Positions 6,659-17,921 of a stretch of 64,000 bases of DNA are shown here, piece by piece. The position numbers were made by a program, and so were the translations under genes. Origin of the DNA: Escherichia coli (GTDB lineage Bacteria; Pseudomonadota; Gammaproteobacteria; Enterobacterales; Enterobacteriaceae); the NCBI RefSeq assembly GCF_965641715.1, contig NZ_OZ282453.1; one strand, written 5' to 3'. Position 1 is the first letter of the stretch, and each line of letters begins with the position of its first letter. Under the pieces are notes generated by a model that saw nothing but the letters and a program-made list of their open reading frames with translations, was not told where the DNA came from and did no database searches.

Positions 6659-7939
6659 TTAATTTTTCATTGCTTCGTTATGGGGCATGGTTGGGGCAAA
6701 CTCGCTTAACTGTGTATTTAACAAAGCTACCTGTGCATTATTGTTTTCAGACATCCATTTTCCGTATACCTGAAATACCATTTGCGCATCTGCATGGCCC
6801 ATCTGGTTTGCTATAAATGCCGGGTTAGCACCAGCTGTCAGCGACCAGCAGGCATAAGTATGTCTCGACTGATATGATTTTCGATGGCGGAGTCCGGCAC
6901 GTTTTATCGCTGCGTCCCACATCTGCCTTATTGAGTCAACGGTAAAATGGTCACCATAATTTTTTACTCTCGCTGACACTTCAGGTTGAAAAACAAAGGT
7001 GCATTTTTGTTTTTCTGTTCTGCCATACTCTCTCAGGTGAACATCAATGATATGCTCTTTGCTCAGTCTCGTTAATGTCATCTGACTCCGGAGAGCGTCG
7101 ATTGCTGGCTTAATAAGATGAATGACCCGATTGGTTCCCGCCTGTGTTTTTGGTACCGTGAAACGGTCTTTTGCTAAATTTCTCCTGATCATCATTGTTC
7201 CATTTTTCAGATCTATGTCCTCCCATCCAAGTGCACACAGCTCACCAGGGCGAATGCCAGTATAAACAGAAACACACCATAAATTTTTTGCTTGCTGATT
7301 TCTGCACGCATCGATAAGACGGATAAATTCCTCCCGCGAAAGAGGATCCGGAATGGTTCTTGATTCCTTTAATGGCGAGATCCCCTTAAACGGATTATCT
7401 GCCAGGTAACCGTTATCAACACCAAACTGGAACACGGCGTTAAGATTTGTCATGTAATTATTTACAGTTACAGCCGATCTCCCTGGTTGTGTAACAATAT
7501 AGTTACTTTTGGGGATCTGGTATCCAGTCAGTAGCTCTTTACGAACCTCCAGTAATTTTTCTTTATTAATCGATGAGGCAAGATTTTTTTCACCGATTAT
7601 GCTCAGGATATTTTTGATGACGGCACGGTATGTGTTGAGTGATGTTTTGGCGACTTCAGTTTCTTTCAGTGCCAGAAATTTTTCAGCCAGTTCTTTTATG
7701 GTTAAATCTTGTCGGGCCTCACCAAATTTTTCCAGATTGCGTGAGGAGGGAAACTGTTTTGCATAGTCGAAAACACCAGTTTTTATTGCGTAACAAACAG
7801 AGGCGCGTAGTTCACCTGCAACGCGCCTGTTTTTTGCTGTGTCAGGAACCCCCAGATTTTCCCTGACTCTTACGCCTTTATAAACAAACCAGATACGTAA
7901 TTTCCCTCCATGGTTTTCCACGCCTGTCGGATATTTCAT
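6659..7939 (-). CDS. int: Phage integrase (tyrosine recombinase)
   Basis: ORF 6659..7954; C-terminal RHTYACWSLTAGANPAFIANQMGHADAQMVFQVYGKWM catalytic region; start placed at second ATG (MKYPTG) which has a purine-rich RBS. Confidence 0.9.
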   Translation of the reverse strand: MKYPTGVENHGGKLRIWFVYKGVRVRENLGVPDTAKNRRVAGELRASVCYAIKTGVFDYAKQFPSSRNLEKFGEARQDLTIKELAEKFLALKETEVAKTSLNTYRAVIKNILSIIGEKNLASSINKEKLLEVRKELLTGYQIPKSNYIVTQPGRSAVTVNNYMTNLNAVFQFGVDNGYLADNPFKGISPLKESRTIPDPLSREEFIRLIDACRNQQAKNLWCVSVYTGIRPGELCALGWEDIDLKNGTMMIRRNLAKDRFTVPKTQAGTNRVIHLIKPAIDALRSQMTLTRLSKEHIIDVHLREYGRTEKQKCTFVFQPEVSARVKNYGDHFTVDSIRQMWDAAIKRAGLRHRKSYQSRHTYACWSLTAGANPAFIANQMGHADAQMVFQVYGKWMSENNNAQVALLNTQLSEFAPTMPHNEAMKN

Positions 7940-7973
7940 TTCAACTTCTCTCATTAGTTAGTGTGGCTTTTAG

Positions 7974-8225
7974 TCAAGTAAGATGACGTCTTGGTCTCGC
8001 TGATGCCTGGCGCTCAATCCAGCGATCAATTTCTTCCAGGTTGTAAAAGCATGGACTGTTATCCCATGGCATACCGTCATGAGCGACATGCTTATATTCC
8101 CTTCCTTCCATAAACGATTTTTCCCGGGCCTTTTTTAACGTACCTTTTTTTATTCCTTTCAGCGCAATTAACTGCTCTTCGGATACCCATTTGCCGGGAG
8201 AGACAATCATGATTACTTCGCTCAT
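7974..8225 (-). CDS. xis: Excisionase-like protein
   Basis: 83-aa ORF immediately upstream of int on same strand; position and size typical of lambdoid Xis. Confidence 0.65.
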   Translation of the reverse strand: MSEVIMIVSPGKWVSEEQLIALKGIKKGTLKKAREKSFMEGREYKHVAHDGMPWDNSPCFYNLEEIDRWIERQASARPRRHLT

Positions 8226-8297: not shown

Positions 8298-10769
8298 TTA
8301 AGAATCAGCCTGACTCGGGATCAGTTTTTGCCAGATAACTGAAACGTATTTTGCCTGGTAACGGGCGTCATCAAGTGCATTATGGCGCTCACCTTCGAAT
8401 GGAATAGCCGTTCTGGCATCGAAATCTATGGCTTTCCCCAGCTCAACGATTGTGCGTACATCGCGATCGTTGTAGTAACGCCACGGGCAGGGGATCCCCT
8501 GCCGTTCGTATGAACGGCGCAAAATCGTGTTGTCGAAGTTGGCTCCATTTCCCCAAACCTGAACAAATAATTCACCGGAGTTTTCGTCGATAAATTCCCG
8601 CAATTGTAACAGTGCATCATCTAACGGGATTTCATCGGTCATAATGGCAGATTGTGCTTCGCGTGATTGCTTAAGCCACCATTTAATGGTGTCCCGATCA
8701 ATGACTCCGCCAGCAGTTTCCAGATCGATAGTCTTACTAAATTCCGGTCCTATATCTCCGGTTTGCGGATCGAAAAATATTGCACCTATTGAGATGATCG
8801 GTGCATCAGGATTTTTTCCCATGGTTTCAAGGTCGATCATTAGATGGTCACACGTCCTGCTGGTGGATGTGATTTCGTGATGACCGTTCACCTTAATTGA
8901 GTGATCTGCCGTCTCGCCAGTTTCATTATCGCTATTGTGATGCTGATTGCCGCCAGTGTTCTCCTTGTGTGGATGTTCAGCGCCTTCCATTTCCTCCGGA
9001 TCATCTTCCTGAACTTCAACCTGATACTCTTCATCGAATGTTTCTTGGTATGTTGCGTCGCCCATCACCGCGCCACAATCAGGGCAGTTGCCGCCGCCAG
9101 TCTGACCGCAGGCGGTGCAGACTTTTTCCACTTCCTGTTGCGCCACTGGTTCAGGCTGTTTCGTTTCTGGCTCGTTTTGTAACGCATTTGGGCTGTTTTG
9201 TTCCGCTTTTTGGTAGTTCCGTTCCGATTCATGCTGGTTCTGGTTCACAGAATCGCGGGTCTGGATCCCCTTAACCCATTTCGGATCATTCGGGTCACTA
9301 ATCCCTTCAACAAATTCACCATGTGATGCAGCAAGCAACTTATCGGCGTCAGGCTGGCTGATATTGGCTGCCTGCATAATTTTGTTTACTTCGTCAGCGG
9401 TAACTTTTATCGGCTCTGGTTGTTCTGAATCTTCAGCGGTATCTACATTTTGCGGTAAGCCCGTGTATGTGCCATTTTTTCGGGCAAAATATTCTTCTTT
9501 TGTGATTTCAGTGGCGCCAGCAGCCAGTGCCTTATCCAGACCAGAAAGTTTGTTTGCGCGACCGTATTTTTCTCCGTCCTTATCTGCGAAGAGGAAATAG
9601 AACGGCCCCTCACGCTCTACAGATGGTTCAGCTTCCGGCGCGGTTTCATTTTTTGGGATATCAGATACCTCAGTTTCCACTGCATCAGTTTGTGTTTCTG
9701 ATGACTGGAGAACATCAACAGTGCCCAGGTCTGTTTCTTCATTCTCAAACACGCCCTTTGTCGTCAGGTATTCGCAGATATATTTGTTCAGTGCTACGGG
9801 ATCTTTGTGAATGTCGATCGGACGCTCACGGACAAGGCCAAAAATAGTTTGGCGGTCGTAGCGAAGGGCATCAGGCTGTTTGCGCATTGATGCCGAGATA
9901 CGCTTCCAGTCTTCGCGGTCGTTGTCGATAACTTCTTTTTTTGCCCAGCGATGGATGCTGCCGTCAATGTTTCCGGCATCCACATCACCAGGCCAGAGAG
10001 CGTAGGCCAGTTCGTCATCCAGTGTTTTCCATGTCTGCTTGTATTCGCGATGAATGGCAGCAATGACCGGGCTGATTTTTCCTGTTGAATTTTCAGTGTA
10101 CTGTTGATTGGCTCTGGCGCGGGCGAGATCAACAACAGACGTGTATTTTCCGGTTTCCTTGCGTTCACCTTCGCGACGTTTTTTCCAGATGCGCATCTCT
10201 GCCTGAATTTCGGGCCATTTAGCACCAGGAATACATTTATGCTTAACCCACCCAATGGCGTGCAACTTAAGCTCCGGATACATGGCGTTAACTTCTGGCA
10301 TTTTCATCAACGCTTCAACGATATGTCCGTCGAATGTTGCCATGTCTTCCTGCAACAATTCCTGTGCGCTAATAACCATATCAACGGTGATGTTTTCACA
10401 TGTGTCGAACTTAACCATGACAGCGTTCTGTACTTCAGGGGCCAGCTTGTCAAAAGTGACGTTCATCGGATCGGATTCAGTCTCAACCGGGACAAAAGAA
10501 GCTGACTCCTCATCCCAGCGGTTTTCCTGCATATATTCAGCATCCCATGAATCGAGGGCAGGGCGGGGTATGCCAGGTTTATCCTCGCAGACAATAAATT
10601 TATAAGCGCAGTCCTGAGCAGCCGGATAATGTTCCAGGAACTGCCAGTGAAATTTTGCTCGAGCACGGCGTTCGTCGCCAGCTTCAATGGCTGTGGCTAC
10701 AGCCACAGCGCCTTCTTCCCTTGTTGCCAGTTCGTCAGGAATAGCGGCGCAAATAAAGACTTTACTCAT
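8298..10769 (-). CDS. RecE-like (exodeoxyribonuclease VIII-type) protein with C-terminal DnaQ-like DEDDh 3'-5' exonuclease domain
   Basis: 823 aa; central DKLLAASHGEFVEGISDPNDPKWVKGIQTRD resembles remembered RecE linker; C-terminus LMIDLETMG...HNALDDARYQAKY is a DEDDh exonuclease signature; acidic low-complexity region with CxxC...CxxC. Confidence 0.7.
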   Translation of the reverse strand: MSKVFICAAIPDELATREEGAVAVATAIEAGDERRARAKFHWQFLEHYPAAQDCAYKFIVCEDKPGIPRPALDSWDAEYMQENRWDEESASFVPVETESDPMNVTFDKLAPEVQNAVMVKFDTCENITVDMVISAQELLQEDMATFDGHIVEALMKMPEVNAMYPELKLHAIGWVKHKCIPGAKWPEIQAEMRIWKKRREGERKETGKYTSVVDLARARANQQYTENSTGKISPVIAAIHREYKQTWKTLDDELAYALWPGDVDAGNIDGSIHRWAKKEVIDNDREDWKRISASMRKQPDALRYDRQTIFGLVRERPIDIHKDPVALNKYICEYLTTKGVFENEETDLGTVDVLQSSETQTDAVETEVSDIPKNETAPEAEPSVEREGPFYFLFADKDGEKYGRANKLSGLDKALAAGATEITKEEYFARKNGTYTGLPQNVDTAEDSEQPEPIKVTADEVNKIMQAANISQPDADKLLAASHGEFVEGISDPNDPKWVKGIQTRDSVNQNQHESERNYQKAEQNSPNALQNEPETKQPEPVAQQEVEKVCTACGQTGGGNCPDCGAVMGDATYQETFDEEYQVEVQEDDPEEMEGAEHPHKENTGGNQHHNSDNETGETADHSIKVNGHHEITSTSRTCDHLMIDLETMGKNPDAPIISIGAIFFDPQTGDIGPEFSKTIDLETAGGVIDRDTIKWWLKQSREAQSAIMTDEIPLDDALLQLREFIDENSGELFVQVWGNGANFDNTILRRSYERQGIPCPWRYYNDRDVRTIVELGKAIDFDARTAIPFEGERHNALDDARYQAKYVSVIWQKLIPSQADS

Positions 10770-10862: not shown

Positions 10863-11054
10863 TTAAAGACCTGCCGGGATTTCGATATTATCCTGGTGAA
10901 TAACTTTATCGACCGGGTAACAGTTACCGGGAATTTTCTGTTCGGTTGCTGCAGTCATACACTCCTGCATTGTCCTGTGAACACTGTCTGCAATATCAAC
11001 TGGCTCTCCGGAAACAAGAAAAGCTGTCAGAACAAGCGCAAATGCTGAATTCAT
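10863..11054 (-). CDS. ydfD: YdfD-like small lysis-associated protein
   Basis: MNSAFALVLTAFLVSGEPVDIADSVHRTMQECMTAATEQKIPGNCYPVDKVIHQDNIEIPAGL; matches remembered Qin YdfD; start overlaps dicB stop. Confidence 0.7.
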   Translation of the reverse strand: MNSAFALVLTAFLVSGEPVDIADSVHRTMQECMTAATEQKIPGNCYPVDKVIHQDNIEIPAGL

Positions 11055-11239
11055 TGTGTACATCCTTTTGGCATCAGACGTAAACGAGCCAGCATTGAAA
11101 CAATGCATATTTTATTTAATAGCTCCCGTTCTTGTTTTCTCTTGTTAATGGCATCTTCAGTAAATACAGGGTTACTGATAGTGACACCAATTTCAAAACA
11201 ACCTTCAGACGTATTAACGTTTGGTAATAACGTTTTCAT
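11051..11239 (-). CDS. dicB: Cell division inhibitor DicB
   Basis: 62-aa MKTLLPNVNTSEGCFEIGVTISNPVFTEDAINKRKQERELLNKICIVSMLARLRLMPKGCTQ inside ORF 11051..11344; near-identical to remembered DicB. Confidence 0.85.
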   Translation of the reverse strand: MKTLLPNVNTSEGCFEIGVTISNPVFTEDAINKRKQERELLNKICIVSMLARLRLMPKGCTQ

Positions 11240-11414
11240 TATCGCGTCCTCAACAATGAATTTTGTGATGCAGTGCCTGGTGCCTCCAGGTGACGTTAAC
11301 CAGTTAACAATTAACGCCGGATACAGAGAATCCACCCATAACACTGTTTTTGGTTTTAACTGTTCCGCGTGCGCTTAGCCGCATTCACCGCATCACAAAA
11401 TTCACTTTAAAAAC

Positions 11415-11466
11415 GGCGGCAGAGCAGTCACGGAGTAAAACTGATACCGCCAAACGTCACCAGAAA
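11415..11466 (-). ncRNA. dicF: DicF small RNA (ftsZ-targeting sRNA)
   Basis: Minus-strand sequence tttctggtgacgtttggcggtatcagttttactccgtgactgctctgccgcc matches remembered DicF; lies directly upstream of dicB in the same operon orientation. Confidence 0.75.
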
Positions 11467-15672: not shown

Positions 15673-17022
15673 TTATTCCGTTTTACATATCATAGTAGTC
15701 GATTGGAGAATATAGTTTCTGGGAATGTACTCTTCAAAGTGTTCGTCCTTTTTAAATACATGAACTACATTTGGGAATAATTGATAGTCAACAGGGTGTA
15801 TAGCGTTTGGATTATGGTACATGTACATGGCTGTACACCATGGTTCTTGATAGTTAGGGTCACTTACATCGGCTGAAAATGGATGTGGGGCTGCATCCTG
15901 ATCAGTTTTAACACCACTGACGTACACTTTGAATCCACTCGCCTCTACACCTGCAAGAATTCCCATCCGGTTAAACTTAGGTATGGTTGCTTGAGTAGTG
16001 AGTAAAACGGCAGAAACATAATTATTTTGTTCTGAGCCAAAAAAGTTCGACTTGATACTTCTATTTTCATCTGTATGTCTTTCAATAGAAATGCCTGACT
16101 CAATATCAATCCCGTACAAATAGCTATGCAAGGCTTCGCTTGAGAAGGCCATGGACATTCTTTTTGAATAATCCTGCATTGCTATGACAAATGGTTTGTT
16201 CTTTGTATGGTTGAGTTCCCAGTAATGAACTTTCTCTGGCTCAGGGCAATGCCGGACTTTTTTTAATAAACTTCTTGCAAACTTAAAAGGCATGACATTT
16301 AGAACATGTTTTCTTAATTCATCCATCTGTTCATCGTTAATGACTTTTCTTTCAAGAGGGGCTTCTGCTTCAGCAATGCTTACAGCCTCTACAGCAATTT
16401 CCACTCCAAATTTAGATAGCAGAAAATCTGGTTGATTGTATTCTCTATTCATTTCAAAGTCGAGTTCATAAAATACAGCGTTCAAATATAATTCAAATAA
16501 CCTTGAATTAAATGCATCACTTTGAAAATCCCTTATAAATATTCCATCAGGATCTTTGAACCAGTATGCAAGTTCCTCAAGAACAATATATGCAGGGAAA
16601 TGAGGAGGGTCTTCGAGGAGCATTTTTATATAAACATTCCTTTTTTTCTCTGGGACTTTACTCAAGAATAATGAAAAAGGTTTGGTTGATTCATCGCCTT
16701 GCATGAATGTACCATTTTGGTGCTGCGCCAGCATCTTTGGTATGTCATCGTTCAAATTATTAAGCAAGACATCCATTGAATCAAATGAAGCCAAGACGTT
16801 TATTGCTCTGAATTTTTTATCTAAATCCCGACCTAAGACTATTGCGTTAAAATCTTTATCAATATTGCATATGATTATTGTGGATAACAATGTTATCCCA
16901 TTCCCCTCATATTTAAACCAGCGTATCTCCTCAGAAAATGTCTTAAGGTAAGGTGAGCGACCGTAAAAATAAATATCAAATTGTTCTTTGCTGATCTCAC
17001 TGAAGTGTAATCCTGCGTTCAT
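15673..17022 (-). CDS. Orphan 449-aa protein of unknown function (candidate accessory/defence gene)
   Basis: Single long ORF on the opposite strand to flanking phage genes, AAAGGA RBS, visibly AT-rich, flanked by ~430 and ~440 bp of non-coding DNA; no Walker A, no family recognised. Confidence 0.75.
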   Translation of the reverse strand: MNAGLHFSEISKEQFDIYFYGRSPYLKTFSEEIRWFKYEGNGITLLSTIIICNIDKDFNAIVLGRDLDKKFRAINVLASFDSMDVLLNNLNDDIPKMLAQHQNGTFMQGDESTKPFSLFLSKVPEKKRNVYIKMLLEDPPHFPAYIVLEELAYWFKDPDGIFIRDFQSDAFNSRLFELYLNAVFYELDFEMNREYNQPDFLLSKFGVEIAVEAVSIAEAEAPLERKVINDEQMDELRKHVLNVMPFKFARSLLKKVRHCPEPEKVHYWELNHTKNKPFVIAMQDYSKRMSMAFSSEALHSYLYGIDIESGISIERHTDENRSIKSNFFGSEQNNYVSAVLLTTQATIPKFNRMGILAGVEASGFKVYVSGVKTDQDAAPHPFSADVSDPNYQEPWCTAMYMYHNPNAIHPVDYQLFPNVVHVFKKDEHFEEYIPRNYILQSTTMICKTE

Positions 17023-17554: not shown

Positions 17555-17765
17555 TTTCACATTGGCGAGGTAACGGTAGTTAAGTAGAATGGCTGCGGGT
17601 GCTTGAGGCTATCTGCCTCGGGCATGAACACCAACGGCAGATAGAGAAAAGCCCCAGTTAACATTACGCGTCCTGCAAGACGCTTAACATTAATCTGAGG
17701 CCAATTTCATGCTAGACACATGTAGGTTAGCCTCTTACGTGCCGAAAGGCAAGGAGAAGCAGGCT

Positions 17766-17921
17766 ATGAAGCAGCAAAAGGCGATGTTAATCGCCCTGAT
17801 CGTCATCTGTTTAACCGTCATAGTGACGGCACTGGTAACGAGGAAAGACCTCTGCGAGGTACGAATCCGAACCGGGCAGACGGAGGTCGCTGTCTTCACA
17901 GCTTACGAACCTGAGGAGTAA
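17766..17921 (+). CDS. hokD: Hok-family type I toxin (HokD/RelF-like)
   Basis: MKQQKAMLIALIVICLTVIVTALVTRKDLCEVRIRTGQTEVAVFTAYEPEE; AAGGAG RBS; ORF track shows in-frame upstream extension from 17709 (mok-like). Confidence 0.9.
   Translation: MKQQKAMLIALIVICLTVIVTALVTRKDLCEVRIRTGQTEVAVFTAYEPEE

Follow-up and report, generated by a model that had tools for sequence, protein, structure and literature searches.

The locus examined here raises the question of what a prophage protein built like RecE (exodeoxyribonuclease VIII of the Rac prophage) might do when it appears to end in a different kind of nuclease and has no annealase gene beside it. The window that we analysed, a stretch of 64,000 nucleotides (nt) from Escherichia coli (RefSeq contig NZ_OZ282453.1), is chromosomal, and the gene in question, encoding a protein of 823 amino acids (aa), lies in a lambdoid, Qin-type prophage inserted beside rspB, the site of Qin in K-12. 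Judged from its domains, the protein appears to be a RecE whose catalytic end has been exchanged: a RecE-type body is followed by a predicted DEDDh 3'-5' exonuclease domain, where RecE itself ends in a PD-(D/E)xK 5'-3' nuclease. The gene and the regions distinguished within its product are as follows.

8298..10769, minus strand: coding sequence, 823 aa plus stop, with an ATG start (open reading frame list); intact allele of the K-12 ydfE pseudogene
10080..10769, minus strand: residues 1-230, YdfE_N (PF27430), ferredoxin-like alpha/beta and helical subdomains; apparent remote homologue of PF06630
9720..10079, minus strand: residues 231-350, YdfE_C (PF27432), conserved helical core equivalent to RecE ~278-345 (phmmer map, BLASTP)
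9360..9719, minus strand: residues 351-470, acidic variable linker, 21% aspartate plus glutamate (composition)
8880..9359, minus strand: residues 471-630, RecE-type region with DKLLAAS...KGIQTRD, zinc ribbon and acidic tail (BLASTP and local alignment against RecE)
9075..9119, minus strand: zinc ribbon CTAC-x7-CPDC, residues 551-565 (regular expression; aligned with RecE 517-531)
8331..8846, minus strand: predicted DEDDh 3'-5' exonuclease domain, DexA-like, residues 642-813 (Pfam PF16473)

The RecE-type body and the C-terminal exonuclease domain

When the protein was compared with K-12 RecE by BLASTP, residues 262-625 aligned with RecE 278-591 (E 6e-61). The match is closest between residues 474-622 and RecE 454-588, where identity reaches 68% with the zinc ribbon and acidic tail included; residues 476-506 in this span read DKLLAASHGEFVEGISDPNDPKWVKGIQTRD, and the zinc ribbon of RecE, CNAC...CPDC, is the same motif as that of the window protein. 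The linker at residues 351-470 is only weakly similar to RecE and is found in a subset of family members. Further towards the N-terminus the relationship is more distant. Neither of the two Pfam families that describe K-12 RecE, PF06630 at its N-terminus and PF12684 (DUF3799, the PD-(D/E)xK nuclease) at residues 615-850 (E 4e-28), matches the window protein, but a profile comparison with hhalign of a YdfE_N alignment (21 sequences) against a RecE N-terminal alignment (13 sequences) gave a probability of 98.8% (E 6e-17) over 225 columns, so that YdfE_N appears to be a divergent homologue of PF06630 that falls below the Pfam membership threshold. PF27430 and PF27432 are named here after the precomputed Pfam entries of proteins that share 97-100% identity with residues 1-350. 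An AlphaFold2 model of these 350 residues has a predicted local distance difference test score (pLDDT) of 87.8 and resolves into an alpha/beta subdomain (1-100) and two helical subdomains (105-205 and 245-345), the last of which coincides with the YdfE_C region, where pLDDT is high at residues 245-345 and columns are conserved in alignments A1 and A2. By these comparisons residues 1-630 are shown to be the apparent homologue of the whole non-catalytic body of RecE, beyond the linker alone.

The shared body (N-terminal module, YdfE_C core, zinc ribbon and acidic tail) is accompanied by a similar overall size, 823 aa in the window protein and 866 aa in RecE, and by the same lambdoid early-left place, after a kil-type division inhibitor and adjoining the excisionase and integrase genes xis and int. 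Beyond their catalytic ends, the two differ in that recT lies downstream in Rac and is absent after the window gene, and in that the window protein stays under the cutoff of the NCBIfam RecE equivalog (NF007259), which it matches at 279.8 bits against 1269 and over positions 271-602 of 877 only.

The C-terminus is where the nuclease assignment rests. Pfam places PF16473 (Rv2179c-like 3'-5' exonuclease) at residues 642-813 with an E-value of 2.1e-67 and 226.7 bits against a cutoff of 27, spanning profile positions 2-177 of 177; a second, weak match to the generic RNase_T family covers the same end, which has no further Pfam match. PF12684 gave nothing at E <= 1, and a phmmer search with RecE 600-866 found no match in the 823-aa protein or anywhere in the window. 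The DEDDh catalytic pattern of DxE (Exo I), D (Exo II) and Hx4D (Exo III) is present, with D646 and E648 (IDLET), D756 (NFD), and H796 and D801 (HNALDDA) all in place; these residues are invariant across 12 homologues (alignments A3 and A6). A 3'-5' polarity is assigned from membership of the DEDDh superfamily, whose members are 3'-5' exonucleases.

Searches of solved structures point to one relative. With the 823-aa protein as the phmmer query against all PDB sequences, T4 DexA was the sole match (E 2.4e-6), and a 12-sequence profile of the domain retrieved DexA (exonuclease A, PDB 8KEL) at E 2.6e-17, the next structure following at 0.06; oligoribonuclease stood at 0.8, and no chain named Rv2179c was among the matches. 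Because DexA stands so far ahead of the next structure, the domain is best described as DexA-like, and this favours DNA as its substrate notwithstanding the ribonuclease (RNase) name of the Pfam family. DexA is the best solved relative and has all DEDDh catalytic residues in common with the window domain; it differs in that DexA, with 227 aa and extra loops, is free-standing and encoded by a virulent phage, whereas the window domain forms the tail of an 823-aa temperate-phage protein.

The domain also occurs alone. Free-standing exonucleases of 180-190 aa from Escherichia, Salmonella, Klebsiella and Citrobacter match it end to end at 58-86% identity, and the fusion point in the window protein (..DHLMIDLETMG) coincides with their N-terminus (MNNLMIDLETMG). 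Many copies of the exonuclease domain are labelled '3'-5' exoribonuclease' by NCBI. In Salmonella prophages (loci L102-L104, 6001-6570, protein P0093) the gene for a free-standing 189-aa DEDDh exonuclease closes the early-left region ahead of xis and int and is preceded by YfdP, DUF2303 and a DndB-like gene; no recognisable annealase was seen there. Production of a free C-terminal domain from the window gene itself, by an internal start at M644, was considered and rejected, as the sole Shine-Dalgarno-like sequence, AGGA, is badly placed at 14 nt upstream.

An earlier reading of the window, made from its letters and open reading frames only (the sequence-only reading), had drawn attention to this frame as the one after xis, and the frame and its quoted motifs, among them LMIDLETMG (residues 643-651) and HNALDDARY (residues 796-804), all lie where it put them. 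Its suggestion of a DEDDh C-terminus in place of the RecE nuclease is borne out by the domain search it proposed, and the resemblance to the RecE linker that it noted proves stronger than it supposed, with a counterpart to YdfE_C and a remote one to PF06630 as well. It was mistaken in calling the zinc ribbon and acidic stretch unusual: both are ordinary RecE features, inherited from it.

The missing annealase and the scaffold family

We searched for a partner annealase in the window and in related phages. A six-frame search of the window by phmmer and hmmsearch, using five RecTs, lambda Bet, Exo and Gam and a Rad52-like profile, found none; annotation of the whole prophage by the Prokaryotic Genome Annotation Pipeline (PGAP) contains no annealase, and a PHROGs scan of ten early open reading frames returned no recombinase, these two annotations being the only cover for Erf, Sak4 and Gp2.5, a small gap in the negative. 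The complete genome of phage HannyBb, fully annotated and searched, and the surroundings within 8 kilobases (kb) of the gene in 80 close IMG/VR relatives likewise lack RecT, Bet, a Rad52-like protein, lambda Exo and Gam, and phages Tritos and Evi have no annealase at the exonuclease locus. Relatives with the two nuclease types separate as follows.

PD-(D/E)xK type (K-12 RecE, P0248, P0344, P0352, P0291): recT immediately downstream in 5 of 5
DEDDh type (window gene, P0347, P0349, P0363, P0373): recT downstream in 0 of 5; xis and int directly after

The exonuclease domains of the four DEDDh relatives other than the window protein are 52-58% identical to that of the window protein. Among the relatives examined the rule is thus strict: the PD-(D/E)xK version comes with recT and the DEDDh version without it. 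This amounts to a natural experiment, in which the scaffold has been kept intact, the catalytic end exchanged, and recT tracks the nuclease type exactly. Measured against what defines two-component exonuclease-annealase systems ('SynExo'), such as lambda Red and RecET, the locus has no adjacent annealase gene and, as far as the domain assignments go, no 5'-3' double-stranded DNA exonuclease domain. The sequence-only reading had reported no RecT- or Redbeta-like annealase and had taken the exonuclease to be of other than Red/RecET type; no such gene had been overlooked, and the predicted DEDDh C-terminus together with the absent annealase supports its second statement. After two of the PD-(D/E)xK scaffold genes the RecTs are long, at 360 and 403 aa (L096 7951-9033 and L097 7598-8809) against 269 aa in Rac, which suggests that they carry extra domains.

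The scaffold itself carries more than these two nucleases. When residues 1-350 were searched with HMMER against 1.84 billion representative proteins, 169 relatives were returned, and the long ones were domain-mapped with phmmer and Pfam; a single-sequence search for related loci had returned near-identical E. coli loci only, and homologous-protein searches were dominated by assembly fragments. Two divergent N-terminal versions exist in the family, YdfE_N or the RecE-type PF06630. YdfE_C was the most widely detected scaffold part and turned up in the majority of mapped relatives, and the linker differs between members, some having the zinc ribbon and others not. At least four kinds of C-terminus were found: DEDDh, PD-(D/E)xK, a domain of ~300 aa without a Pfam family, and a fourth domain. 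Both nuclease types occur with both N-terminal versions.

The ~300-aa domain appears to be a Rad52/Sak-type annealase. It has an invariant motif, KKSLTDAxKKALSxLGFxAD, was modelled at pLDDT 79, and gave sub-threshold matches to Rad52_Rad22 in 9 of 18 members. At 77 of the 80 IMG/VR loci retrieved with it, it lies in one open reading frame with the YdfE scaffold, and within 7 kb at these 80 loci no RecE-type, lambda Exo-type or DEDDh nuclease, RecT or Bet was found. These scaffold-annealase fusions (phrog_2489) have the YdfE_N/YdfE_C scaffold and early-left position of the window protein; the label 'exonuclease' that PHROGs gives them is probably wrong. The fourth C-terminal class (P0246 at L010 6001-8109, and P0359, P0380 and P0337) ends in a domain of ~180-250 aa assigned to phrog_26058, for which there was no Pfam match and no recT downstream. 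In four divergent enterobacterial loci of the DEDDh type a small Rrf2-family gene (PF02082) lies directly upstream of the scaffold-exonuclease gene (L007 5522-5860; L093 4521-4859; L094 4515-4859; L095 4533-4859), a position that ydfD and dicB occupy in the window.

The protein as such is already catalogued, as 'exonuclease' by NCBI, as phrog_2082 in PHROGs, and under YdfE_N, YdfE_C and Rv2179c-like in Pfam, and a literature search found no paper describing the exchange of domains, the link between recT and nuclease type, or the fusions to an annealase. The protein is best described as an early-left member of the RecE family whose nuclease has the opposite predicted polarity and which has no partner. 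Naming is affected in two ways: the database name 'exodeoxyribonuclease VIII' would imply the wrong polarity for this protein, and its annealase-bearing cousins would be misnamed as exonucleases.

Possible functions of the intact ydfE product

We consider it probable, though well short of certain, that intact ydfE encodes a RecE/YdfE-family scaffold protein in which a complete DexA-like DEDDh exonuclease has taken the place of the 5'-3' nuclease, and that this enzyme trims DNA 3' ends during lytic growth and forms no part of a Red/RecET recombinase. Expression of the protein would come from the early-left transcript that DicA represses, and would be confined to induction or infection. Its scaffold would bring the catalytic domain to a target common to RecE and the Rad52-type fusions, probably linear DNA ends or intermediates of recombination or replication, since the same scaffold appears to carry a Rad52-type annealase in the third subfamily. 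At this target the DEDDh domain, dependent on Mg2+, would strip nucleotides from DNA 3' ends. Activity of this polarity would destroy the 3' tails needed by Red/RecET, so that the enzyme should not be half of an exonuclease-annealase recombinase, and because it would remove 3' tails instead of creating them, no annealase would be kept beside the gene. In lytic growth the enzyme would most likely shorten 3' ends or strip 3' tails from DNA of the phage or the host, with candidate benefits to the phage either as an accessory to host-dependent repair or through ends made unusable by RecBCD or rival pathways.

Several observations weigh against this account. The Pfam family is named for an RNase, Rv2179c, and an RNA substrate is compatible with the domain. 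The scaffold model retrieved no structural relative of known function, nor anything else at E <= 0.001, in a BFVD search, and delivery to DNA ends is argued from the fusion partners alone. A free-standing exonuclease takes the same slot in Salmonella prophages, and given that standalone version the scaffold may be needless for the core function. No conserved partner gene that would indicate a pathway was found among the loci.

The RecE/YdfE N-terminal region of ~600 aa could also be a portable platform that brings any attached enzyme to one DNA substrate or host partner, an idea that we regard as speculative and rather doubtful. If it held, the cargo would be a nuclease of either polarity (5'-3' or 3'-5'), a Rad52-type annealase or the fourth domain, and the DEDDh version would stand alone as an early-left system that needs no annealase and has a separate function. 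Such a system might turn ends into 5'-tailed forms on which RecBCD cannot load, as a substitute for Gam in Gam-less phages, or might destroy 3' tails on which rival recombination or defence pathways depend. The N-terminal domain of RecE was still listed as of unknown function in a 2023 structural review of recombineering proteins, and full-length RecE alters the outcome of recombination (PMC11611040); comparing the three natural versions offers a route to the binding target of the scaffold, and so to the old question of what the large N-terminal region of RecE is for.

Other functions can be set against 3'-end trimming by a partnerless enzyme. The protein might be an accessory to recombination in trans, working with the annealase or recombinase of another lambdoid prophage in the same cell or with host RecA/RecFOR; by clearing non-homologous 3' tails it would leave 3' ends fit to prime synthesis. 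In its other versions the scaffold is linked to recombination enzymes, the same prophage encodes the Holliday-junction resolvase RusA, T4 DexA has been credited with a role in intron homing (PMC12153337), and co-resident prophages are common, the median number of matching places in carrier E. coli genomes being two and the maximum ten. We nevertheless hold this to be unlikely, as phage genome records that contain the gene, such as that of HannyBb, have no annealase of their own, and 3'-5' exonucleases tend to oppose single-strand-annealing recombination; RecET assembly, to go by the title of PMC13048471, is enhanced by an xonA mutation. A role in RNA metabolism, as an exoribonuclease like the Pfam family founder Rv2179c acting on phage or host transcripts such as the dicF/dicB operon RNA, would suit the name of the best Pfam family, the NCBI label of many copies, and the processing of the DicF small RNA (sRNA) from the same transcript. 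It seems to us very improbable, since the nearest characterised relative is by a wide margin the DNA enzyme DexA, far ahead of oligoribonuclease in the profile search, and the scaffold fused to the domain is one of DNA recombination.

A defence or exclusion nuclease of the HREX/EcD type, which would destroy incoming phage DNA with modified cytosines, is also improbable, if less so than an exoribonuclease. EcD, a DexA homologue of E. coli, is reported to degrade 5-hydroxymethylcytosine (5hmC) DNA and to protect against T4 (PMC12153337); like the window domain it is an E. coli-encoded DexA-like DEDDh exonuclease, and the prophage also carries a PD-T7-1 defence gene. In DexA, W152 and D169 are residues of 5hmC recognition and D90 is a tetramer residue. 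At the position of W152 the window protein keeps an aromatic residue, which is a tyrosine (RYYNDRD motif) and not the tryptophan that the 189-aa standalone relatives retain; the position of D90 aligns with an aspartate or a neighbouring alanine, depending on the register, and D169 lies outside the alignable part. EcD is moreover a different protein, short and free-standing, whose cloning primers encode a start MIDTET... and an end ...TIPETYD, termini that rule out EcD being the C-terminal domain of the window protein. The window gene lies in a repressed lytic (early-left) operon with the toxic dicB and dicF, which makes expression in a lysogen unlikely, and the 823-aa protein has no match in PADLOC-DB (2023, anti-phage defence proteins). 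Between the two roles that the sequence-only reading had floated, anti-defence and DNA-end processing, the comparative context favours the latter.

Prophage setting and distribution

The 823-aa gene stands in the following surroundings, given here from the prophage end at rspB inwards.

6659..7954, minus strand: int, integrase ('site-specific integrase', PGAP), at the prophage end beside rspB (open reading frame list)
7974..8225, minus strand: xis, excisionase ('excisionase family protein', PGAP), directly downstream of the 823-aa gene
10863-11054, minus strand: ydfD, early-left (dicB) operon (PGAP annotation of a near-identical genome)
11051-11239, minus strand: dicB, early-left operon (PGAP annotation of a near-identical genome)
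11414-11465, minus strand: DicF sRNA, upstream of dicB and ydfD in the operon of the exonuclease gene (Rfam, 72.5 bits)

Read along the minus strand, the order is a DicA-like repressor, a DUF1391 gene, a hypothetical gene, DicF, dicB, ydfD, the 823-aa gene, xis and int, which shows that the early-left (dicB) operon ends with the 823-aa gene and is followed by xis and int. By gene order, the slot that xis fills here is that of recT in Rac. The order of ydfD, dicB and DicF recurs in K-12 Qin and phage Tritos, and relatives have a constant context, running from kil or dicB-ydfD to the exonuclease gene, xis and int. Scans for promoters and terminators returned fewer sites than in shuffled sequence and were not used.

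The whole window is 99.4-99.55% identical over its full length to E. coli strain O91:H21 FWSEC0008, and in a reference genome of 99.5% identity PGAP calls the same protein as WP_000048321.1, product 'exonuclease'; it also matches phrog_2082 end to end. We identify the gene as the intact allele of ydfE because its first 257 residues are identical at 256 of 257 positions to K-12 ydfE, which occupies the same locus at rspB, downstream of dicB and ydfD, and is cut off by IS2 at residue 257. As the K-12 copy is left without linker and exonuclease, K-12 is uninformative on the function of the gene. The prophage as a whole is the intact counterpart of K-12 Qin, since DicF lies in the operon of the exonuclease gene and the sok antitoxin RNA (17597-17771, plus strand; 115 bits) adjoins hokD.

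The gene is kept in functional phages and is no decaying remnant, given that intact copies at 87-99.5% identity are present in the phage genome records HannyBb, PhiR42_1, Tritos, mEp460 and Evi. At a coverage of at least 80% it is found in 3536 of 5426 complete E. coli genomes (~65%), which places it among the commonest E. coli prophage genes, so that even an ordinary function would annotate thousands of genomes.

Two further features of the prophage were noted. A 449-aa 'hypothetical' open reading frame at 15673-17022 (minus strand) matches PD-T7-1 over its full length (PADLOC PDLC04073, E 4e-157); PD-T7-1 is an anti-phage defence protein that acts as a single gene, and this PD-T7-1-like gene is a prophage accessory lying between the replication genes and hok/sok, on the opposite strand. 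Genes for tRNA-Ile and tRNA-Arg lie at about 21130-21390 of the window (plus strand), downstream of a Q-like antiterminator, according to the PGAP annotation of the 99.4%-identical reference prophage.

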